Assembly: GCA_021786945.1 (NCBI GenBank)
Contig: JAJYMK010000001.1
Location: 794-64,793, forward strand
Source of the DNA: a bacterium
GTDB taxonomy: Bacteria; Patescibacteriota; Minisyncoccia; UBA6257; 02-FULL-45-10c
Direction: 5' to 3'
Length of the DNA: 64,000 bases
Shown piece after piece: positions 4,044-60,148 of the stretch; position 1 is the first letter of the stretch; the number at the start of each line of letters is the position of its first letter. The notes beneath the pieces are model-generated. The model did not search any database, had not been told where the DNA came from, and worked only from the letters and a program-made list of their open reading frames with translations. A program made the translations under genes and the position numbers.

Positions 4044-5099
4044 CTATTTGAACAAATTCTTAACTAATTTATTCAAGCTATGCTTATTTATAACAATGTC
4101 TCTAAGCTTCTTATTAGGCACCTCTCTCTCTTTTATATTTAGAGATAATATATTTTTTAATTGAAAAGCTATGTTTTTATCACTTTCTCTTTCCAAAACA
4201 AATTCTTTATCAATTTCATCATTTAGACTTTTATTAGCAACCAAAACCAAAGACTCACAAGCCATGGCTTCAAATATGGTTTTATCCATACTCCCGCTAG
4301 GGGTTAAATTAACATAAAGTTCGTATTTATTATACAAATCAACAGCTTCTTCGTGTTTAACAGAACCAATAAACTCAACTTTATTTTCTAAATTATATTC
4401 TTTAACTTTTAATTTTAGGCCCTCATAATATCCAATATCTTTAGGAAGCGGATCGCCAACAATGAGAGCTTTAAAAGTTATACCATCTTTATCTAATAAA
4501 TTTAAAGCTTTAATAAACAAATCCGGCTTTTTTATCGGAGAAATTCTGCCTAAAAATAAAATAGAATTTGGTGTTTTCTTGATTTCCGGCTTCCTTCTAA
4601 AAAAATCTGTATCTATACCTACTGGCATAATCTCGGTTTTCTTAAATCTTGCCGTATAAGAATATTTTGAAGTGCAAAAAACTCTATCGGAAACCCAAAC
4701 CGCAAAATTAGTCAAAAAAGATCCGTAGGGATGGTTTCTCCATAACATTATTTTTTTACCTAATAATTTCCATAATTTCCAACCCAAAAGCGCATACTCC
4801 TGATTCATATGCACAAAAACGGCATCATAATTTTTCCTTTCCTGCCAAATATATTTATAGAATCTATATACAAATAAAAACTTGCTAAAAATATGCGAAT
4901 AATACGAATGGCTACGAATATATTCTTCTTTACCAAGAGACAAAACCGTAACATTGGATGGCAAACTATATTCCCCCTTTTCTAAGCAAACAACCGTCAC
5001 TTTTTCGCAGTTTTTAGAAAACTCTTCCGTCCACCTATGAAAGAAGCCAAGAATTGGATCGTTTATGTCTATTTTCTGCGTTACTATTAATAATTTCAT
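4044..5099 (-). CDS. GT4 glycosyltransferase
   Basis: C-terminal FEAMACESLVLVANKS motif (E..EAMA....V). 351 aa. Confidence 0.75.
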   Translation of the reverse strand: MKLLIVTQKIDINDPILGFFHRWTEEFSKNCEKVTVVCLEKGEYSLPSNVTVLSLGKEEYIRSHSYYSHIFSKFLFVYRFYKYIWQERKNYDAVFVHMNQEYALLGWKLWKLLGKKIMLWRNHPYGSFLTNFAVWVSDRVFCTSKYSYTARFKKTEIMPVGIDTDFFRRKPEIKKTPNSILFLGRISPIKKPDLFIKALNLLDKDGITFKALIVGDPLPKDIGYYEGLKLKVKEYNLENKVEFIGSVKHEEAVDLYNKYELYVNLTPSGSMDKTIFEAMACESLVLVANKSLNDEIDKEFVLERESDKNIAFQLKNILSLNIKEREVPNKKLRDIVINKHSLNKLVKNLFK

Positions 5100-14631: not shown

Positions 14632-14966
14632 GTTTATTTTTAATTTGATCTTTTCTTAAACGAATTTCAGTCGACGAAATTTTTTGTGTTTAAGAAAAAA
14701 TTATCTTTCTAATTTTCTTTTCTTTCTAAAAAAATTATTTTTACGCTACTCTCTTCATACCCGTAGGCACAAGAGATCGACCTTGCGTAGTTTCGAAATA
14801 ACTTTCTCGGTATCTTTACCCGTACGTTTATAAAAAACGCATGTGGGTTTGCACCAACATCCAAGATGGATATTTGACACCCCCACACCGATTGCAACAA
14901 TTCATGAAATACTGTGAGGATATTTCATTACAGCAATAGGTGTGGGGGAAAAAATTTATTAACCTA

Positions 14967-24808: not shown

Positions 24809-26083
24809 TTAAAACATCTTCTTAACTTCTTCCAAGGCCCTTTCTAATTGCGTATCTTTTCCGGCTTTTACATCGTCGTCGGAAATTTTTACTTCAATAT
24901 CGGGAGTGAGACCAGTCTGATCTATAGTGCCGCCATTTGGCATAATCCATTTGGCAATAGTCATTTTAATCTGTGAACCATCTTTAAGAGATTCCATTTG
25001 CTGGACAGTACCCTTTCCGAAAGTCTTTTCACCTATTAATTTCACTTTTCTGTTGTCACGCAAAGCGCCGGCCAAAATTTCAGAAGCAGAAGCCGAGCCC
25101 TTGTTCACCAAAACAACTATAGGCATGTCTTTAAAAGCTCCAGTTCCATTTGCAAAAAATTTAGTATCCGCACCGTCTCTGGGTCTTTCGCTAACCACCA
25201 AAGTGTTTTTATCAAAAACCCAGCCGGCCAAATTTACGGCAACTTCCAAATAGCCACCCGGATCATTTCTTAAATCCAAAACCATTCCCTTTATATTGCT
25301 ATCTAATAAAATACTCATCGCAGCTTTATAAAAAAGAAATGGGGCTTTTTCATTAAAACTGAATAATTGAACATAAGCGACATTTCCATCTTTTACCTCC
25401 CATTTAAGCGTGGGTACGGAAATGGTTTCCCTGGTCAAAGTAACATCGTGGGGCTTGCTGTCGCCATTACTTAAAAGACTTAGGGTAACTTTTGTACCAA
25501 CCTCTCCCCTTATCTTTTTCACAGCCTCGTTAACATCGGCTGTCAAAACAGGCTTGCCGTCAATTCCTAAAATTTTATCTCCAGCTTTAACGCCGGCGCG
25601 TGAAGCGGGCGTATCTTCAAGCGGAGCAACAACAACAACAAAATCATCCTTTACACTTAATTCGGCACCAATACCACCAAATTCACCCTGTATATCTTCC
25701 TCGAATTTCTTGGAATCATCGGGAGACATAAAAACTGTATGCGGATCTTTTGTGGCACCCACCAATCCGCTAATAGCTCCGTACATAAGATCTTTATCGT
25801 TAAGATTGGCGCCGTCTATATATGTAGACTTCAACAAATTCCAAGCCTGCCAAAAAACACCAAAGTCTACACTAGAGGCTTCGTTTGAATCTATATTGGC
25901 CGCTCCCCTTATGACTATATTTTTAGGGTTTTCACTGCTATAGGTATAGCCAGAATAAAAACCGGCCCCAATCAAAACTAAGGAAGCCAAAATAATTCCC
26001 GAAACAACCAAAAACTTATTAAAAAAATTCCTGACGCCATCCCAATTTATTTTAAACTTAACTTTTTCTATTATTTTTTTCAT
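24809..26083 (-). CDS. ctpA: Carboxyl-terminal processing protease (S41 family, Ser/Lys dyad) with PDZ domain.
   Basis: GMVLDLRNDPGG and VVLVNKGSASASEILAGA...TFGKGTVQ motifs. The track start at 26095 is a GTG read as Met (MRGYMKK). The ATG at 26083-26081 (MKKIIEK) is preferred. Confidence 0.9.
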   Translation of the reverse strand: MKKIIEKVKFKINWDGVRNFFNKFLVVSGIILASLVLIGAGFYSGYTYSSENPKNIVIRGAANIDSNEASSVDFGVFWQAWNLLKSTYIDGANLNDKDLMYGAISGLVGATKDPHTVFMSPDDSKKFEEDIQGEFGGIGAELSVKDDFVVVVAPLEDTPASRAGVKAGDKILGIDGKPVLTADVNEAVKKIRGEVGTKVTLSLLSNGDSKPHDVTLTRETISVPTLKWEVKDGNVAYVQLFSFNEKAPFLFYKAAMSILLDSNIKGMVLDLRNDPGGYLEVAVNLAGWVFDKNTLVVSERPRDGADTKFFANGTGAFKDMPIVVLVNKGSASASEILAGALRDNRKVKLIGEKTFGKGTVQQMESLKDGSQIKMTIAKWIMPNGGTIDQTGLTPDIEVKISDDDVKAGKDTQLERALEEVKKMF

Positions 26084-26086
26084 ATA

Positions 26087-26101
26087 CCCCCGCACCTAAT
26101 T
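26087..26101. repeat. Left terminal inverted repeat CCCCCGCACCTAATT of a GIY-YIG mini-cassette.
   Basis: Reverse complement of the right copy at 26369-26383 (AATTAGGTGAGGGGG), 14/15 match. Overlaps the GIY-YIG stop and the ctpA start region. Confidence 0.6.
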
Positions 26102-26356
26102 AATTTCTATACTCTTTTTAATACGACGTTTTAATTGACTAAATGCATTTCTCCTCAATTTCAAATTAACTTCACGCCCCCTTGCATCATCGCCTGATTT
26201 ATAAGCTTCATAATAAACAATTTCAAATGGTCTGCGATTTTTTGTTGACGGCACCAATCCTTTATTATGCTTTGTAAGTCTTTCTCTAAGATTATTAGTT
26301 GAACCAATATATAAATTATTATCTTTTTTACTTTTTATAATGTAAGTATAAAACAT
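26096..26356 (-). CDS. GIY-YIG nuclease-domain protein (UPF0213-like, 86 aa).
   Basis: FYTYIIKSKKDNNLYIGSTNNLRERLTKHNKG...YYEAY..DDARGREVNLK matches the GIY-YIG catalytic core (Y-x10-Y, R, E, N). Confidence 0.85.
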   Translation of the reverse strand: MFYTYIIKSKKDNNLYIGSTNNLRERLTKHNKGLVPSTKNRRPFEIVYYEAYKSGDDARGREVNLKLRRNAFSQLKRRIKKSIEIN

Positions 26357-26368
26357 AATAAAAAAAAT

Positions 26369-26383
26369 AATTAGGTGAGGGGG
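26369..26383. repeat. Right terminal inverted repeat AATTAGGTGAGGGGG of the GIY-YIG mini-cassette.
   Basis: See the left copy. GC-rich 15-mer in an AT-rich intergenic spacer. Confidence 0.6.
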
Positions 26384-26414
26384 TGAATCTTTATTAATTA
26401 TACCACTATATAAA

Positions 26415-27041
26415 TTAATTTCCGCCGAAATCTATATGTTGCAAAAGCTCATACCTCGCTCCATTTTTAGACAAATGGGATTCCATTAGATCTATACCTC
26501 CAGCCATAAAAAACCAATCCAGGTTTTTGAATTCCCTTCCGATTTCCGGCAATTCTTTTTTTGGTATTTCGGTAAACCCACTCACCTGATTTTCAGGTGC
26601 GGGGGTAAATCTTGCCAAAGTGATATGGGAATTGAATTCCCTGTTCTCCAATTTGAACCTTACTTTATTTTTTATAAGTTCATCTTCCAGGGCTATTTTT
26701 AACGAACCTAAACTTTTGGAGGTTTCGGAGGCTCCATTTAGCCAGATCATGCGCGGAGTACCTTTGGGCGGAGCATAAGAAATATCTTCCAAAGTTATTT
26801 CGGGAGAATCAAAACTATCAGCCACGTCTTCCATTGATTTTATAATCGGTAAAATAGCCTCATCTTCCTGATATCCCAAAAATACAAGAGTAAGATGCCA
26901 GTTTTCATCGGGTGTGATGTGAGTTCCGCCAGAAGACACAAAACTTGCCCCTGGAATCAGAGACTCCAAGGCTTCTTTCTTTTTTGAAATTTTTTTTCTT
27001 ATATCTTCAGGAATGTTTATAGCTATAAATAAGCGTCTCAT
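26415..27041 (-). CDS. thpR: RNA 2',3'-cyclic phosphodiesterase (2H family, LigT/ThpR).
   Basis: Two H-x-T/S-x motifs: WHLTLVFLG and SHITLARF. 208 aa. Confidence 0.85.
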   Translation of the reverse strand: MRRLFIAINIPEDIRKKISKKKEALESLIPGASFVSSGGTHITPDENWHLTLVFLGYQEDEAILPIIKSMEDVADSFDSPEITLEDISYAPPKGTPRMIWLNGASETSKSLGSLKIALEDELIKNKVRFKLENREFNSHITLARFTPAPENQVSGFTEIPKKELPEIGREFKNLDWFFMAGGIDLMESHLSKNGARYELLQHIDFGGN

Positions 27042-27919: not shown

Positions 27920-28873
27920 ATGAAATATGTATTTTTCGGCACGCCAAAATTTGCCGCTATTGTTCTAGAAAAACTTATCGCAGCTGGCCTTGTACCGGTA
28001 GCCTTAGTCTGTAACCCTGATGAACCAACAGGCAGAAAAAAAATACTCACCCCTCCGGAAACCAAACAATTGATTTTGAATAAAAACATAAATATTCCGA
28101 TTTTCCAGCCCAAAAAACTTTCTGAAATAAAAACAGAATTGGAAAATATCGGCGCAGACGCATTTATAGTGGCTGCTTACAACAAAATAATTTCCGAGAA
28201 AATAATAAATATACCGAAATTCAAAACAATCGGAGTACATCCGTCTTTACTCCCCGCTTACCGAGGGCCATCACCCATACAAACGGCCATTATTAACGGC
28301 GATAAAAAAACCGGCGTAGATTTATTTCTTATCGACAAAGAAATTGATCACGGAGCGGTCTTGGCTAGCACTGAATGTGAAATATCGGAAAAAGATAACT
28401 CGGAAAGCTTAACCGAAAAACTCGCTATCCTCGGAGCCGAACTGATAATCAAGGAATTGCCTGAATATTTAGCAGGAAAAACAAAACCAATCGAACAAAA
28501 CCACGAAAAAGCTACATTTACCAGAAAATTCGAAACAAACGACGGAAAAATTGATTTGCCCCCCCACCTATTTCTTGCTGACCAATTAGAACCAAAAAAC
28601 AAATTTAATATTTTTAGAATATTTTCAAATATAAAAAATAAGATATTTGGGTGCGGGGGCGAAGAAAAAGACTCTCCTGAATCAATTTTTAATAAAATCA
28701 GAGGGCTTAACCCCGATCCTGGAGTTTTTACTTTAATAAAAACAAAAAACGGAGAAAAAAGAATTAAATTACTTGAAGCAAAATTAACGGAAGGAAAACT
28801 AGAAATCCTAAAAGTTCAGCCCGAGGGCAAAAAACCGATGTCTTTTAAAGATTTTCAAAACGGAAATCTTTAA
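27920..28873 (+). CDS. fmt: Methionyl-tRNA formyltransferase
   Basis: N-terminal FFGTPKFA, HPSLLPAYRGPSPIQTAIINGDKKTGV (formyl-transferase core), C-terminal Fmt domain. def-fmt gene order. Confidence 0.9.
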   Translation: MKYVFFGTPKFAAIVLEKLIAAGLVPVALVCNPDEPTGRKKILTPPETKQLILNKNINIPIFQPKKLSEIKTELENIGADAFIVAAYNKIISEKIINIPKFKTIGVHPSLLPAYRGPSPIQTAIINGDKKTGVDLFLIDKEIDHGAVLASTECEISEKDNSESLTEKLAILGAELIIKELPEYLAGKTKPIEQNHEKATFTRKFETNDGKIDLPPHLFLADQLEPKNKFNIFRIFSNIKNKIFGCGGEEKDSPESIFNKIRGLNPDPGVFTLIKTKNGEKRIKLLEAKLTEGKLEILKVQPEGKKPMSFKDFQNGNL

Positions 28874-43073: not shown

Positions 43074-43136
43074 CCCCTCACCTATTTTTTATATTTACCA
43101 CCTAATTTTTTTGCTTTAAATAATTAGGTGCGGGGA
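43074..43136. repeat. Solo inverted-repeat pair (CCCCTCACCTATTT ... AATTAGGTGCGGGGA) in the infB 5' leader. Same IR family as the GIY-YIG cassette ends, enclosing only about 35 nt.
   Basis: 43074-43088 cccctcacctatttt and 43122-43136 aattaggtgcgggga. An internal 9-bp hairpin cacctaatt/aattaggtg sits at 43099-43130. Confidence 0.55.
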
Positions 43137-43220: not shown

Positions 43221-43310
43221 GGAGGCGTGGCTGAGCGGTCGAAAGCAGCACACTGCTAATGTGTTGAGGGGGAAACCCCTCCGAAGGTTCGAATCCTTCC
43301 GCCTCCGCCA
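43221..43310 (+). tRNA. tRNA-Ser (anticodon GCU), class II, CCA encoded. Integration site of the downstream element.
   Basis: Acceptor GGAGGCG/CGCCTCC, D-arm GCT-GAGCGGTCGAA-AGC, anticodon stem GCACA/TGTGT with loop CTGCTAA, variable stem GAGGGG-GAAA-CCCCTC, T-arm GAAGG-TTCGAAT-CCTTC, then G-CCA. Confidence 0.9.
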
Positions 43311-44830
43311 GATTTCCAACTTTGAACCGTAGAAACTGCAAGGGTTTTCGAGCCCTTTGATGGTTTCGGTGGTTCGAGTTTGGAGACTTGCAAATCCATA
43401 AGAACATCAAAGACTGGCGTCCATATCGGCGTCAGTTTTTGATTACTGACAGTGAACCCCTCAAAACAAAGCTTCATCAATGTGCGTTTTTGATGCATTG
43501 AGCTGGTATTGAACACCTTGTCGGCATGATCCGTGAAGTCCAGTAATTCATTAAATTTCTGCACGAATTTGTCAGACTTGCCCTCAAGCACCCCTAAGCG
43601 GTCCTGATACATTTCCTTCTCCTTTAAAAGCTCGTCCTGAATCTTTATAAAGACATCGGCGTCAATAATACGCTGGGAACGATCCACAACGATATTGCGA
43701 ATTTGTTGCTGAACTCTTATAAGCTCACGCTTGAGACTCTTGCGTTCTTTGTCCTCCTGCTCAAGCCTTTCTTTGGCAAAATATTGAAAGTAAGAATCAA
43801 GCACCTTCTTAAACTTATCAGGTAGATGAACCCGTGATAAATGGTTTGCGACCTGTTCCTCAACGACCTCCCATCTCATGTATTTGCGTTCAGTGCAGTT
43901 TTTGTCCTGCCAGTGAGTGCATGAATAGTAAAGATGACCTTTCTGCATCTGTCCGCAGAGTGTAGACCCACACACTGCACATCTCATAAACCCTGCCATA
44001 GGATACGAATGCTTGCGAGTACGATCGGCGTAATGATTGTGCTGTTGGACTACTTCCTGAACATCATCAAAAAGCTTCTTTGAGATCAAAGGCGGAAAAT
44101 TTGCCTGACAAGTGGCTGATCGAGTTTTTATAAGACCGTAGTAAATTGGATTGCAAAGAAAATGCTCAATTGATTTGCGATTAACATGTTTGCCGGATTT
44201 GCTTTTGAGACCTCGCTTATTAAGTTCGGCCGACAGAGAGTCGTATGAATACTTGCCGGTGGCGTAGAGTTCAAAAGCCAGTTTTATATATGGGGCCCGA
44301 ATGTTATCGATAATAAGAGATTTAGTCTTTTTATCGTTTGTGTACCCAATTGGTGCGTATCCAGGGAATCTGCCACGCTCTACGGCCTCTTTAAGACCTT
44401 TCCTGACCTCCCAGCTGATGTTTTGAGATGTCCACTGGGCAATGGAAGCCATGATGTTCTCAACCAGCTCTCCAGAAAAAGACTCATCGAACTGCTCGAC
44501 TACTGAGACAAGTTTGGCATCATGCTTTTTAAGCATCATCTTAATGGCGGCGTAGTCGGCCACATTACGGCACATACGATCAAGCTTGTGGACTAAGATG
44601 ACATCAACCTTACTATCAGTTTTTGCTCGATGAAGCATTTTCTGAAGCTGTGGACGATCAGTCGTTCTAGCTGATTCGCCCTTTTCCTCATAGATACCAT
44701 CTGGGAGTAAATTCCAGTGATGATCCATTCCGTATTTTTGGCACGCTTTGACTTGTGCCGGAATACTCAATTCTCGTTCGGCCTGACGAGAGGTGGAAAC
44801 ACGGCCGTAGATTAAATAATTTGTACTCAT
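43256..44830 (-). CDS. Large serine recombinase (integrase). The C-terminal about 18 codons are encoded by the complement of the tRNA-Ser 3' half.
   Basis: N-terminal resolvase catalytic domain with YGRVSTSRQ (Ser nucleophile). Recombinase domain. Zinc ribbon CAVCGSTLCG...CTHWQDKNC. Coiled-coil. 524 aa. Confidence 0.85.
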   Translation of the reverse strand: MSTNYLIYGRVSTSRQAERELSIPAQVKACQKYGMDHHWNLLPDGIYEEKGESARTTDRPQLQKMLHRAKTDSKVDVILVHKLDRMCRNVADYAAIKMMLKKHDAKLVSVVEQFDESFSGELVENIMASIAQWTSQNISWEVRKGLKEAVERGRFPGYAPIGYTNDKKTKSLIIDNIRAPYIKLAFELYATGKYSYDSLSAELNKRGLKSKSGKHVNRKSIEHFLCNPIYYGLIKTRSATCQANFPPLISKKLFDDVQEVVQQHNHYADRTRKHSYPMAGFMRCAVCGSTLCGQMQKGHLYYSCTHWQDKNCTERKYMRWEVVEEQVANHLSRVHLPDKFKKVLDSYFQYFAKERLEQEDKERKSLKRELIRVQQQIRNIVVDRSQRIIDADVFIKIQDELLKEKEMYQDRLGVLEGKSDKFVQKFNELLDFTDHADKVFNTSSMHQKRTLMKLCFEGFTVSNQKLTPIWTPVFDVLMDLQVSKLEPPKPSKGSKTLAVSTVQSWKSGGGGRIRTFGGVSPSTH

Positions 44831-55539: not shown

Positions 55540-55860
55540 AGTTTTGGTTGATAATTTAACGCTATAAGTTATATAGTGGATTATAATGGATTACAGCCGT
55601 AAATGCAAGTCAAAGACCTATAAATATCGAAAAGTCCCGAATATGGAGGTTTTATTGGAATATTAGGCTTAAAATTGGGGTTCAAGTACTGGTATTTCCA
55701 ATGTGAATGAAATTATGTTATAATTTAGTCAACTGGTAATGCTTTGCGTTAGTAGCCGTGAAATATGACAGCTTGCTGCTTTTTTTCAATATACAGGTAT
55801 AATAGCGTTAGCTTAGGTAACAGCAAGCTTCATAAAAAACATCCTTTAAATTTATATCTT

Positions 55861-56826
55861 ATGAACAAACAAATTAGTAAAAAATATAAGTCGCTCGACT
55901 TGTTTGCCGGAGTCGGTGGAATAAGGATGGGTTTTGAAAAAGCTGGGTTTGAGACTGTCTTTGGAAATGATTTTGATGCATATTGCAAAATTACCTATGA
56001 TTTAAATTTCAAGGATGTCCCATTAACGGTTGCTGATATTTCAAAAGTTAAAAGCTCCGATCTGCCAAATTTTGATATTCTCCTTGGAGGATTTCCGTGC
56101 CAGCCTTTTTCAATCGCAGGATATCGTAGGGGGTTTCTTGATACAGGACGGGGTGATTTATTTTTTGAAATTGTAAGAATTTTGCGTGACAAAAAACCAC
56201 GAGCAGTTTTTCTTGAAAATGTAAAAAATTTAAAATCACATGATGGTGGAAAAACTTTTAAGATTATCTCTGATGCCCTTGAGGATCTTGGCTATCATGT
56301 AAAGGTAAAAATACTTAATAGCGTAGAATACGGAAATGTGCCTCAGAACAGAGAAAGAGTTTATATTGTTGGTTTCAAATCAAAAAAACAATATGATGCC
56401 TTTGAATTTCCCGAGCCCGTAAAACTAAGCAAAACTATCGCCGATATTCTTGAAAAGAATGTAGACGAAAAATATTATTATACAAATTCACCACTTTATC
56501 CGGAACTCAATAAAACAATCAAAAAAAATAATGTTGTATACCAGTGGCGTCGCATTTATGTTCGGGAAAATAAGAGTGGAGTTTGTCCAACCCTAACTGC
56601 GAATATGGGCATGGGCGGTCACAATGTTCCCCTGATCAGAGATCATAAGGGAATCCGCAAATTAACCCCACGGGAATGTGCAAGGTTCCAAGGATTTCCT
56701 GACAGTTATAAACTTCCAAAAGATTTTCCTGATACGAAGCTTTATAAACAATTTGGTAATTCAGTTACCACAACCGTGATCGAAAGAGTTGCTAAAAAAA
56801 TAAGCAAGGCTTTAGATGTAAAATAG
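55861..56826 (+). CDS. DNA (cytosine-5)-methyltransferase.
   Basis: Motif I LDLFAGVGGIRMGF. Motif IV GGFPCQPFSIAG. Motif VI FLENVKNL. The track start 55765 is probably too early. I prefer the Met (MNKQISKK) at 55861. Confidence 0.9.
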   Translation: MNKQISKKYKSLDLFAGVGGIRMGFEKAGFETVFGNDFDAYCKITYDLNFKDVPLTVADISKVKSSDLPNFDILLGGFPCQPFSIAGYRRGFLDTGRGDLFFEIVRILRDKKPRAVFLENVKNLKSHDGGKTFKIISDALEDLGYHVKVKILNSVEYGNVPQNRERVYIVGFKSKKQYDAFEFPEPVKLSKTIADILEKNVDEKYYYTNSPLYPELNKTIKKNNVVYQWRRIYVRENKSGVCPTLTANMGMGGHNVPLIRDHKGIRKLTPRECARFQGFPDSYKLPKDFPDTKLYKQFGNSVTTTVIERVAKKISKALDVK

Positions 56827-56827
56827 C

Positions 56828-58009
56828 ATGTTTTTAGAAAGACAATCACAAAGTCAGGTTGGTTATTACGAACGGCTCCTAAAGGCCGTTGGTTCGTTGT
56901 CGAATCTTTTCTCAGAATCTCCGGAACCATATCTTGCATCACGAGCTACGGAAAATTTATTTTGTAAAGCTTTTGAAGCTCAGAATCTTTCTCGTTCAGA
57001 CGCTTCAGCTGATGCGTCTAAGGGAAAAATTGGATTTGGTATAAAAACATTTCTTGAGGGAAATGGTAGAACAATGCAAAAGGTTGCGGAATTTAATAGT
57101 GACCATTTGATGTTTGGCACTCTTCCGCCCGAGGAAAAAGTAAGAAAAATCGCTGAACTTAGAAATGAGCGTATTTTAACCACGAAGCGTATTTTTGGTC
57201 TGGATGATCTTATTTATCATTGTATAACTCGTAAGGTGGGGAAAATTATTGTATACGAAACTCCCGCCCCACTTATAGATATAAACAGCATAAGAGATGT
57301 TAAGGTCACCGCAAGAGGTGCTACGATACAGTTTTCTGATTCTAACGCTGAATATTCATTTAATAATTCAAAAAGCACTCTTTATAAAAGATTTATAACT
57401 CCCGATCGAGTACTTCTTGATGTGCCTGTAAGGATTTTAACAGACCCATTTTCTGCTGTAGAAAAATTAATATCAGAAGCTGGTCTTATCTTTGCTCCAG
57501 TCAAAGTTTTACCGCATGTATTCTTACCACTATACTCTATGAGGGGTGGTGTTAAGCGCGTACCAGAGAAAAGCGGATTGAACCAATGGAATGCAGCCGG
57601 TCGGCCACGCGATCCAAATGAAATATATATTCCAATTCCTGTGTGGATTCACCGTAAATTTGACGGTTTTTTTCCTCCTCGGGATGGAGCATTCGAACTT
57701 ACGCTCCCAGACGGAACCACTATGAGTGCCAAAGTGTGCCAAGATAATTCCAAGGCATTAATGAGTAATCCTAATTCAGCATTGGGTAAATGGTTATTAA
57801 GAGATGTCTTAAATTTGAAAGAAAAAGAGCTTTTGTCATATGATAAACTTCAAACCATTGGCCTTGATACGGTTGTAATTTACAAGGTCGATAATGAACA
57901 TTTTGATATTGATTTTACTCGTGTGGGTTCTTATGAGAAATTTGAAATTGAAAATGGTGAAAATAACGAATCAGAAACCGACACAACCCAAGATCAAGAC
58001 GATGAATAA
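56828..58009 (+). CDS. Putative Type II restriction endonuclease cognate to the C5-MTase (assigned by context).
   Basis: 393-aa ORF, stop-start overlap with the MTase (TAGCATG). No recognisable family motif by eye. The call rests on genomic context. Confidence 0.4.
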   Translation: MFLERQSQSQVGYYERLLKAVGSLSNLFSESPEPYLASRATENLFCKAFEAQNLSRSDASADASKGKIGFGIKTFLEGNGRTMQKVAEFNSDHLMFGTLPPEEKVRKIAELRNERILTTKRIFGLDDLIYHCITRKVGKIIVYETPAPLIDINSIRDVKVTARGATIQFSDSNAEYSFNNSKSTLYKRFITPDRVLLDVPVRILTDPFSAVEKLISEAGLIFAPVKVLPHVFLPLYSMRGGVKRVPEKSGLNQWNAAGRPRDPNEIYIPIPVWIHRKFDGFFPPRDGAFELTLPDGTTMSAKVCQDNSKALMSNPNSALGKWLLRDVLNLKEKELLSYDKLQTIGLDTVVIYKVDNEHFDIDFTRVGSYEKFEIENGENNESETDTTQDQDDE

Positions 58010-58304
58010 ATTATGCACAGAAAAAACTATTGTGCTGTTTTTTGAAAAGTAGTATAATGCAATTAACAATCAAATAGAGTTATGCCTCACGAGGCATCCT
58101 GAAAGGAATTCCAAGTTTAAGAGCTTGCGATTAATTATCACTTTTTGTGGTAATCAATCGCAAGCTCTTTTTTGTTTGATTGTTGCCAGCTCTCTGCCAC
58201 GCCCAATAACGGTCGACATCCAATCTTGTTAATCGACCTCACACTGCCCGAGCTCAAGGGTTCGGGTAATAAAAATATACAAGGGATGTGGGCGTGCCAG
58301 AGAT

Positions 58305-59342
58305 TTGAGAATTAAAAAAAATATGTTTAGTAAATTTCAAGCATTGCCGAGTTACTTCGGCGGAAAAAGAAAACTGGTCAAGCACATTTTTAAGCCGATC
58401 AAAAAGACCGAGGGAATTTTTATTGATGCATTCTTGGGAGGCGGATCAGTGAGTCTCTACGCCAAAGCAAAAGGATACAAAGTTATAAGCAACGACATCG
58501 CCTTCCGGTCAGTGATCATCGGTCGAGCGATTATCGCAAACAATTCCGTCAAACTTGAATCCGAGGATTTAGCGAGATTATTTTTTGAAACAAAACACGA
58601 CAGCTTTATAAAAAAGAATTATTGTCCAAAAGTATTCACCACCAAGATTGCCGAATTTTTAGATAACGCTTTCGCTTCTGCCAACAAAGTGGAAAACGAA
58701 ACAAAACGCTACCTTTTATTGCATTTATTGATTAAGTTTATTCTTTCTTGTCGACAGTTTGGAAAGTTTACACACACCCGGGACACGCTGGATTTGGAAG
58801 CTCGAAAATGGGAGTGGCCACTCCGGTCCAAGTCTCACGCCCCAAAGAATTTGCGGATGATACAGAATCCAATGATGACTTTGGAAAAATTAAAAGACGA
58901 AATTAATCATGGTATTTTTGATAACCATCAAGACAATGAAATACACCAACAGGATGTGTTTGATTTTCTCAAACAAGTTAAAGGTAATGTTGTTTATTTT
59001 GATCCTCCTTATCCTGGCTCTTCTGCCTACGAAGTTGAGTATGGGATTTTAGATAACATTCTCGCCAACAAAAAGCTGGATAATAAACCGAGTGGTTTCT
59101 CCAACAACGATGCTGATGAATTTTTAGAAAAAATGCTTGAGTCGGCAAAACATATTCCACAGTGGATCATCTCGCTCGGACAAAACAAAGAGGATGTCGG
59201 AATGAAGCCAGAAAAACTTTTGGCGATGGTGCAGAAACATCGCAAAGCCGAAGTGCAGATGATGGAACACAAATGGAGTGTGGCCAACGCCGGAGGTCGA
59301 AACCAAAGTAATAACATCGAATACATGATCGTAACTTTATGA
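58305..59342 (+). CDS. DNA N6-adenine methyltransferase, Dam/D12 class (orphan, phage-type).
   Basis: Motif I-like LPSYFGGKRKL and FLGGGSV. Catalytic DPPY (YFDPPYPGSSAY). Confidence 0.85.
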   Translation: MRIKKNMFSKFQALPSYFGGKRKLVKHIFKPIKKTEGIFIDAFLGGGSVSLYAKAKGYKVISNDIAFRSVIIGRAIIANNSVKLESEDLARLFFETKHDSFIKKNYCPKVFTTKIAEFLDNAFASANKVENETKRYLLLHLLIKFILSCRQFGKFTHTRDTLDLEARKWEWPLRSKSHAPKNLRMIQNPMMTLEKLKDEINHGIFDNHQDNEIHQQDVFDFLKQVKGNVVYFDPPYPGSSAYEVEYGILDNILANKKLDNKPSGFSNNDADEFLEKMLESAKHIPQWIISLGQNKEDVGMKPEKLLAMVQKHRKAEVQMMEHKWSVANAGGRNQSNNIEYMIVTL

Positions 59343-60148
59343 AAAAAGAAAAAACCGAAATCAAAATAGTGAAAATAAAAGAGTGCGTTCCGAACTGGTG
59401 GAATCCGAACGAAATGAACGCTCGCCAATTTTCATCACTTAAAAAAGCTTTGACTAAATACGGACAAACCAAACCAATACAAGTGGGAGTCTGGCCGAAC
59501 ATGAAAGTCAAAGACGGCTATGTGATCGTGGGCGGATATCACACTTGGAAAGTGCTTGGCGAACTTGGCGAAGCCGAGATTGAAGCCAATATCCACAATT
59601 TCAAAAATGAGGACGAAGCCAAACTTTATGGGTTAACCGATAACATTCACGGTTCAAACCAACAAATAAAACTCGGCAAGCTCGCCTACGAGTTAACCCA
59701 AAACGGATATTCAATCAAAGACATTGCTCAGAATCTTGGCGAGGAAGATATCAATGTCAAAGATGCCCTCGACTTAGTGAAAGATGAAATAGAAAAGAAA
59801 ATGATTGAGCTTAAAAAAGCCGAGCGAGAAAATACTGTCGTTTTGAATTTCATCGTAGACAAAGACCCAGAAGCATCAGCCGATGAATTTATAAAAGCCG
59901 TAACTGCATTTGCGAAAGCAAAAGGCATAAAGGTCGAGAAAGCAGTCAAAGATATAAATAAGCAAAGAGAAACTATCGCTCTAATGAGTTTCAATGTGAC
60001 CAATCCGCAAAAAGGCGTGATAGATGAAGCGTTAAATACCCTGACAAAAGAAACCAAAATGACCGAGAGTGAGGCGATCGCAGAGGTGTGTAGCCGATTT
60101 ATAAATACACAAAACGGCAACATTCAGCAACAAACCGCAACAAAATGA
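59339..60148 (+). CDS. ParB-like nuclease (ParB/Srx N-terminal) domain protein.
   Basis: KIKECVPNWWNPN...KPIQVGVWPN..DGYVIVGGYHTWKVLGELG parallels ParB-N (I.PNP.QPR... PI.V..... Y.LI.GERR.RAA..LG). 4-nt overlap with the Dam gene. Confidence 0.6.
   Translation: MKKEKTEIKIVKIKECVPNWWNPNEMNARQFSSLKKALTKYGQTKPIQVGVWPNMKVKDGYVIVGGYHTWKVLGELGEAEIEANIHNFKNEDEAKLYGLTDNIHGSNQQIKLGKLAYELTQNGYSIKDIAQNLGEEDINVKDALDLVKDEIEKKMIELKKAERENTVVLNFIVDKDPEASADEFIKAVTAFAKAKGIKVEKAVKDINKQRETIALMSFNVTNPQKGVIDEALNTLTKETKMTESEAIAEVCSRFINTQNGNIQQQTATK

Follow-up and report, generated by a model that had tools for sequence, protein, structure and literature searches.

The window analysed here is a stretch of 64,000 nucleotides from a Patescibacteriota genome (assembly GCA_021786945.1, contig JAJYMK010000001.1), and our subject is a complete 297-bp element on its minus strand (26087..26383; henceforth element B), in which the gene of a small GIY-YIG nuclease is enclosed by terminal inverted repeats (TIRs). 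Element B runs from a C-run to a G-run in the spacer between ctpA and LigT. Its arms, CCCCCGCACCTAATT (26087-26101) and AATTAGGTGAGGGGG (26369-26383), had been picked out in an earlier reading of the letters alone (the sequence-only reading), and we confirmed both their positions and their complementarity at 14 of 15 bases, which rises to 17 of 18 once the arms are lengthened by an A...T pair and two further bases; in a repeat search this was the inverted repeat of top length within 24-30 kb. Between the arms lies a stand-alone open reading frame (ORF) of 86 amino acids (26096..26356, minus strand; PF01541, E 2.9e-17). In the sense of the gene, the 5′ TIR (ACCCCCTCACCTAATT; 26369..26384, minus strand) ends 12 nt ahead of the ATG, and the 3′ TIR (AATTAGGTGCGGGGGT; 26086..26101, minus strand) contains the TAG stop codon (26096-26098) and ends 3 nt before the ATG of ctpA. 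The arms bracket the ORF, as had been proposed.

The arm motif recurs elsewhere in the window, almost always as an inverted pair. Specifically, AGGTGMGGGG (with at most one mismatch) was matched 10 times against 2.58 expected, a count attained in 0 of 100 shuffles, and inverted pairs account for 9 of the 10 matches. A looser scan for the core CCCC[C]NCACC…GGTGNGGGG[G] returned five inverted pairs, one surrounding the 86-aa GIY-YIG gene and four gene-less (29-101 nt). The sequence-only reading had recognised a second pair in the infB leader, which we found at 43074-43135 with arms enclosing 34 nt, and had called for a genome-wide search with the motif; the looser scan of the window added three pairs that had gone unnoticed (14880-14948, 26577-26605 and 28559-28659).

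Relatives of the window protein number in the hundreds, measure 84-86 aa and come mostly from metagenome-assembled genomes (MAGs) of Patescibacteria (candidate phyla radiation, CPR). We fetched 80 genomic loci (20-kb stretches) carrying homologs 52-71% identical, from many candidate phyla, and scanned their flanks for inverted repeats. An enclosing inverted repeat with a score of at least 19 was found in 51 of the 80 loci (the maximum in shuffled flanks was 15), and the CCCCACAC core stood inverted on either side of the gene in 46 of them. The outer ten positions of the TIR are conserved (CCCCCACACC), whereas at positions 11-21 the sequence varies (three or four pair types each) while pairing is kept in 55-87% of elements; from position 22 onward pairing is about 25%, i.e., at the random level. 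The ATG is usually 0-30 nt from the 5′ arm (in a few cases further), and the ORF often terminates in the 3′ arm. Given the conserved arms and the fixed position of the gene, the gene and its TIRs of about 21 nt therefore make up a conserved unit of 283-355 bp.

In the same loci, these termini also bound about 30 short gene-less elements (19-202 nt), most of which are long perfect hairpins and whose interiors are unrelated. Such gene-less hairpins behave as non-autonomous relatives of the gene-bearing unit, akin to MITEs (miniature transposable elements with inverted repeats) or REPINs. By comparison, 0.54 Mb of control loci picked by fmt contained only four core pairs, all in the nearest relatives of the window (L086 and L088). 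Protein clades co-vary with repeat sub-motifs (...CACCTAAT, ...CACCAATT, ...CACCTATATTTTTAT, CCCCCTCACTC and CCCCCCACCAC), and in one protein cluster (cluster 33, CCCGCACAC; L046, L050, L052, L070 and L071) the gene lies between complete hairpins of 28-202 nt and not inside a split hairpin.

Direct repeats immediately outside the termini were scored in 81 elements, with the C-run and G-run as boundaries and re-paired flanks as the control. An exact 4-bp repeat was present in 35 of the 81 elements, where the control gave 3.3 on average and 9 at most; a 5-bp repeat occurred in only one element. The duplicated tetranucleotides are diverse (TTTA, TAAA, ATAA, CAAG, CGTG, TAGG and others) and surround gene-bearing and gene-less elements alike, meaning that both forms insert with a 4-bp target-site duplication (TSD). 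Pooled targets have a weak palindromic preference, G|T-W-W-A|C, and their flanks tend to look like the element ends. DnaA-box-like sites (TTAT|CCACA; duplication TTAT or ATAA) account for six of 36 TSD-bearing insertions (L045, L048, L049, L059, L060 and L071); the reason is either a likeness of the box to the element end or a preference for origin-proximal DNA.

Orthologous loci supplied the matching empty sites. In relatives retrieved via Fmt the order ctpA-LigT-orf111-def-fmt is kept, and in the window LigT carries a 29-nt gene-less hairpin (element C, 26577-26605; 26573..26609 with its TSDs) flanked by the duplication TAAA (26573-26576 and 26606-26609). Element C and its TSD amount to 33 nt, i.e., 11 in-frame LigT codons (TPAPENQVSGF), and this insert is missing from all six aligned orthologs: the filled site in the window reads AGA TTTA[CCCCCGCACCTGAAAATCAGGTGAGTGGG]TTTA CCGAAATACC, and the empty site in the L086 ortholog reads AGA TTTA CAGAAATTCC, with a single TTTA. 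A 101-nt gene-less element inside fmt (element D, 28559..28659) makes up, with 4 nt more, 105 nt or 35 in-frame codons between the formyltransferase N and C domains, where it divides the Pfam C-domain match in two; these 35 residues are missing in the three closest relatives retrieved (L085-L087; GATTTG|GAAAAAGA). The sequence-only reading had also suggested comparing orthologous loci with and without the GIY-YIG gene, and both states were found: in L086 and L087 the spacer between ctpA and LigT, 17-31 nt long, lacks the unit altogether, and in the more distant L088 the unit occupies this spacer, at about 71% identity. Across different MAGs, elements that are 86-88% identical in DNA stand at differing insertion sites.

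Transfer RNA genes are a further target. Gene-bearing elements sit at the 3′ end of tRNA-His (L020 9888-9960, L042 9887-9958 and, in the opposite orientation, L063 10268-10340), and tRNA-Ser (L037 10275-10362) and tRNA-Ala (L034 10277-10347) each have one in their 5′ acceptor region. In these cases 3-5 nt at the end or the start of the tRNA come from the element terminus, which regenerates the tRNA end and leaves the gene intact. An element can thus reside within an essential gene without shifting its reading frame, or at a tRNA end that it regenerates. Together, the conserved TIRs around homologs, the 4-bp TSDs and the orthologous empty sites bear out the idea, first raised from the letters of the window, of a mobile unit with MITE-like copies.

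The two remaining gene-less elements of the window are intergenic or in a leader. Element A (14880..14948) is a 69-nt hairpin with the consensus core CCCCCACACC / GGTGTGGGGG, located in the intergenic region upstream of a gene for a 1087-aa PG_binding surface protein, and its DNA fold has a free energy of -19.5 kcal/mol (z -6.4). Element E (43074..43135, 62 nt) lies in the infB leader, and its fold consists chiefly of the terminal stem (z -3.1). It had been taken for a miniature cassette footprint of element B, an idea that does not stand, as the two have only arms of about 20 nt in common (18/20) and differ in their interiors; a derivation of E from B by internal deletion was likewise rejected, the interior matches being AT-rich noise. 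Among the elements inside genes, C is a strong DNA hairpin (z -5.5), and the terminal stem of D is like that of shuffled sequence (z -1.65). We also observed that B, C, E and a hairpin in L088 (3764-3792) carry a T.C mismatch at arm position 6 (CCCCC-T-CACC vs GGTG-C-GGGGG), unlike the family consensus, which has an A-T pair there; the mismatch could mark the orientation or the specificity of an element. This L088 hairpin, 29 nt long, is in frame (29+4 = 33 nt) in the longer of two candidate ctpA start regions, and the LigT ortholog of L088 (~4144-4773) bears a different 24-aa insert (AGGVAFKEPGSRALGRPSDGLG) that is not in the window.

The protein encoded by element B consists of PF01541 alone, with no further domain in its 86 residues. 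A 45-sequence alignment of the family has 13 invariant columns, including Y5, Y16, H30 and E62, with R26 in at least 90% of sequences, and the window protein retains all five of these residues. With dN/dS among homologs of 0.03-0.16, the ORF is under strong purifying selection, and the nuclease is apparently active. A confident AlphaFold (AF2) model (pLDDT 91.6) has a beta-beta-alpha-alpha-beta-alpha core followed by a basic C-terminal helix. Its best match among solved structures is Slx1 (root-mean-square deviation 1.4-2.2 A, identity 28-35%), alongside the UPF0213 proteins BH0048 and EF2693; 1zg2 was matched at E 9e-12.

Within populations, the gene and the hairpins appear to behave differently. 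One exact protein of the family (P0066) was found on 22 contigs and at one locus throughout; the exact protein of the window likewise occurs at a single locus, and no identical multi-locus copies of either were seen. Because P0066 keeps one locus on 22 contigs, the gene behaves as a long-lived single-locus resident and not as a multicopy insertion sequence (IS). Where one contig carries two copies (L051 and L060), these fall below about 85.5% identity, the level of the 40 closest pairs listed. The GIY-YIG gene thus appears to be single-locus per population, much like RAYTs (the transposases associated with repetitive extragenic palindromic, or REP, sequences), with the hairpins as the part that multiplies. 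Viral contigs gave six weak matches only, so that the family is virtually absent from them, and a plasmid collection gave two distant matches, which we used as Ssn and UPF0213 references.

Taken together, we read 26087-26383 as one copy of a transposon-like, mobile TIR/TSD family, found mainly in Patescibacteria/CPR, that has the nuclease as its cognate enzyme; we give this reading as a whole a probability of about two in three. Its parts differ in strength. We have little doubt that the TIR/TSD family is mobile, and we lean, if only slightly, towards the GIY-YIG nuclease being what mobilises the elements. The way in which it might do so is suggested by the arms: only the outer 10 bp are conserved and the next 11 are merely paired, and 86 residues cannot read a 21-bp duplex, which makes recognition of the stem base the most economical assumption. 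The nuclease would accordingly bind the stem of the paired arms at its base, in a single-stranded DNA (ssDNA) hairpin or a cruciform, and might cut at the junctions between element (stem) and flank and at target sites that look like them; host repair and ligation would then finish the movement and yield the 4-bp duplication. We infer the cleavage step from the biochemistry of Ssn nucleases and from the Slx1-like fold. A bolder version, in which the 84-86-aa protein is the sole mobilising enzyme that the elements encode, would found a nuclease-only class of "GIY-YIG transposases", and no other autonomous bacterial transposon would come near the small size of these elements; the enzyme would also be what spreads hairpin MITEs into CPR genes, essential ones among them. 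We offer this version tentatively, as something that may well prove wrong.

Several observations weigh against our reading. No detectable repeat encloses 29 of the 80 homologs, and four of the five window elements (A, B, D and E) have no intact TSD; the flanks of B are TATA and TGAA, and the TSD of D is not preserved. That the window and L088 have B while the closer L086 has none calls for precise losses on more than one occasion or for several insertions at the one spacer. Near-identical gene-bearing pairs at different loci of one genome were not found among the loci, which leaves recent transposition of the gene-bearing form conjectural. The link from the nuclease to movement is one that we infer, and a transposase acting in trans may be encoded outside the 20-kb loci inspected. 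GIY-YIG enzymes are hydrolytic nucleases and are not known to carry out strand transfer; for a nuclease alone to produce a 4-bp TSD, the host would have to contribute steps that are unproven, and insertion by a hydrolytic nuclease is the weakest link of the model.

These weaknesses give room to two other accounts of the nuclease. In one, it is a domesticated host enzyme of the Ssn/NTS type, a sequence- or structure-specific ssDNA nuclease that might, for instance, restrict or shape the recombination of incoming or replicating ssDNA at hairpins, and the hairpins spread by some other route. This account can point to Neisseria, where SsnA modulates natural transformation and mobility was merely speculated upon (PMC11893778). 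It also fits the single-locus gene under strong purifying selection, the location between ctpA and LigT that the gene has in both the window and L088, where about 71% identity is compatible with long vertical inheritance, and the placement of the cluster 33 gene between complete hairpins, as in NTS-ssnA-NTS. It sits poorly, however, with gene-bearing units that bear 4-bp TSDs at unrelated sites (tRNA genes included), with the absence of whole gene-bearing units from close relatives and with elements of 86-88% DNA identity at differing sites in different MAGs, and no other mobilising enzyme is evident; we regard it as unlikely. The other account turns the relationship around, such that the hairpins are MITEs of a transposase encoded elsewhere and the GIY-YIG gene, having once entered a hairpin loop, is carried along as a passenger. 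The combination of TIRs and a 4-bp TSD, a classical mark of strand transfer by transposases that is not known for GIY-YIG nucleases, speaks for such an account, as do hairpin interiors unrelated to the gene-bearing element and the limitation of our data to 20-kb loci. Nevertheless, the gene has stayed with its termini over many phylum-level lineages and in a constant geometry (ATG near the 5′ arm, stop in or beside the 3′ arm), the TIR sub-motifs change along with the protein clades, the control loci chosen by fmt are nearly free of hairpins, and the annotated portions of the window and the Pfam-annotated flanks yielded neither a DDE nor an HUH transposase, all of which makes a passenger gene quite improbable.

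A more conservative view would hold that the hairpins are not mobile at all, i.e., that terminators, mRNA stabilisers or Shine-Dalgarno (SD) contexts flank the gene by chance. The stable RNA and DNA folds and the two arms just upstream of start codons speak for it. We give this view next to no credence: it is already contradicted by the empty-site comparisons, and it leaves the TSDs and the in-frame LigT and Fmt insertions unexplained. There were 0 terminator-like sites in 25900-26700, and Rfam covariance models matched only tRNAs in the window. The possibility that the motif is the general SD context of the organism, which the sequence-only reading had itself raised as an objection, is ruled out by the restriction of the motif essentially to inverted pairs and by the AT-rich, SD-less leaders; a GGAG-type SD precedes only about 3 of 49 long ORFs in the window, which suggests that translation initiation in this organism is largely SD-independent. 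The same reading had proposed that the element donates a ribosome-binding site about 8 nt ahead of both downstream genes. The G-run is in fact 7 nt from the ATG of infB and 3 nt from that of ctpA, 18 of 170 element ends fall no more than 30 nt from an ORF start, which is no enrichment over random positions (16%), the AGGUGAGGGG arm is fully paired in the infB leader RNA, in a stem of -20.5 kcal/mol, and close relatives have no element upstream of ctpA. An incidental effect on the expression of ctpA or infB may exist, but nothing supports such donation as a property of the family.

Returning to a mobile family with its own nuclease, the closest known system is Ssn/NTS, in which small single-domain GIY-YIG proteins (cd10448; about 90-100 aa) cleave only ssDNA beside cognate hairpin repeats; the NTS/SRM repeats stand on either side of the ssn gene and occur scattered, hundreds of them, and the authors remarked on the IS-like layout and on the analogy with REP/RAYT (Chenal et al. 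2025, PMC11893778). The CPR family shares with Ssn a GIY-YIG-only protein of about 85-95 aa that is tied to dispersed hairpin repeats, some of them inside genes. It differs in the repeat itself: the published SRM, HGTCWYN(0-2)YYVSBRHN(0-5)WNVSBRGN(0-2)RNCYNB, contrasts with the core CCCCCACACC, and the SRM pattern had 0 matches in the window and 0 within 500 nt of the gene in 88 family loci. As a positive control, the pattern matched four times around the gene of Azospirillum lipoferum plasmid AZO_p3 (L084 2857-3475), a GIY-YIG gene between sufB and sufC with inverted pairs of CGTCATCCCCGCGAAGGCGGGGATCCAGG on both sides. By profile score the family stands about equally far from Ssn and from UPF0213, with 54.4 bits for the SRM-flanked Azospirillum protein and 57.4 bits for B. 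subtilis YazA (UPF0213, cd10456). Further differences concern the gene, which in CPR usually lies between the arms of one split hairpin and not between complete hairpins; the exact 4-bp TSDs and empty sites, the terms "duplication" and "direct repeat" being absent from the wording of the Ssn paper; and the hosts, here CPR MAGs, with "Patescibacteria" and "Candidatus" likewise absent from its text (PMC11893778). Cluster 33 bridges the split-hairpin layout and the NTS-ssnA-NTS layout of Ssn systems.

Both kinds of repeat were encountered in relatives of the window. Canonical SRM-type repeats (CGTC/TGTC-tagged, NTS-like) lie in frame in Fmt in L088 (6691-6888) and L089 (2341-2451), where their translation reads ...VIPAKAGIQ, at the same Fmt codon boundary (DL|E) as element D. 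Since SRM-type and CCCC-type repeats, which are unrelated, have entered one boundary, both families circulate in these bacteria, and the linker tolerates either.

With REP/REPIN-RAYT systems (REPtrons; Nunvar 2010, Bertels & Rainey 2011, Ton-Hoang 2012; PMC3733652, PMC3337134), the family has in common an enzyme gene in single copy that persists vertically and is bordered by the repeats it presumably disperses, many short palindromic non-autonomous copies, and recognition of hairpins, probably as ssDNA. The enzyme here is, however, a GIY-YIG nuclease and not an HUH Y1 transposase (Pfam detected no HUH domain in the window protein), the termini are CCCCC and not GTAG, and TSDs are present, unlike in IS200/IS605-type elements. 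CGTC-tagged REPs, including the Rickettsia palindromic elements (RPEs), have been described without a dedicated transposase (Di Nocera et al. 2013, PMC3733652); they too are palindromic elements inserted in frame in conserved protein genes, but they belong to another sequence family and have other termini. In its TIRs, its TSD of fixed length, the ORF that reaches into a terminal repeat and the gene-less derivatives, the family resembles DDE-type IS and their MITEs. It is set apart from them by an element of about 300 bp whose sole ORF is GIY-YIG, with no DDE, HUH, serine or tyrosine recombinase domain; more broadly, the element encodes no transposase of a known class (DDE, DEDD, HUH, Ser, Tyr or Cas1), and many near-identical autonomous copies were not seen. 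IS200-type elements are among the smallest IS known, and an element of about 300 bp is under half their size.

The GIY-YIG relatives of the protein offer two more comparisons. Slx1 cuts branched DNA, carries a RING domain and needs Slx4; together with UPF0213 it provides the top matches in sequence and fold, and its cutting of branched DNA would agree with a nuclease that recognises a stem base. The genes of UPF0213 proteins, B. subtilis yazA for example, differ in that they lie in ordinary operons without flanking repeats. Homing endonucleases of the I-TevI type share the catalytic domain and the presence/absence polymorphism between relatives, and the unit of the window had been called homing-endonuclease-like. 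In the classical sense this label does not fit, as there is no DNA-binding module, no association with an intron or intein and next to no presence on viral contigs, and in place of homing by recombination there is a TIR and TSD architecture; the match of the window protein to TIGR01453 is far under the cutoff.

The spread of short palindromic repeats (REP-like, CGTC-tagged and Rickettsia RPE-type) in protein genes has been a puzzle for decades, and the 2025 work on Ssn linked a GIY-YIG ssDNA nuclease to such repeats without demonstrating mobility. A search of the literature on GIY-YIG transposons or transposases, on their TSDs and on palindromic repeats of CPR bacteria returned nothing beyond the Ssn paper. 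Relative to Ssn, the gene inside the hairpin, the 4-bp TSDs, the empty sites, the in-frame LigT and Fmt insertions, the regeneration of tRNA ends and the CPR hosts have not been reported before. At the level of sequence, the CPR family thus adds sharp termini, exact 4-bp duplications, empty sites and a nuclease gene within the mobile unit, and with these four features the proposition that hairpin elements are moved by a GIY-YIG nuclease can be put to a direct test, for which short oligonucleotides and the 86-aa protein are enough. If the proposition holds, transposition would gain a new enzymatic class, and the insertions that streamlined genomes carry in essential genes would have an explanation; a tiny DNA-cutting module, specific for structure and sequence and with naturally varied specificities, would also become available and, by extension, the dispersal of Ssn-associated, CGTC-type and RPE-type palindromic repeats would be explained.

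Two other regions of the window are worth recording. A gene for a 524-aa large serine recombinase (Resolvase + Recombinase + Zn_ribbon_recom; 43221-44830, minus strand) lies 85 nt from element E, its 3′ end overlaps a plus-strand tRNA-Ser(gct) and an HTH_3 gene follows; this region looks like the border of an integrated element. Further on, a restriction-modification cluster (55765-60148) encodes two methylases, a C5 cytosine and a D12 adenine enzyme, and a protein whose C-terminal domain is NgoFVII-like.

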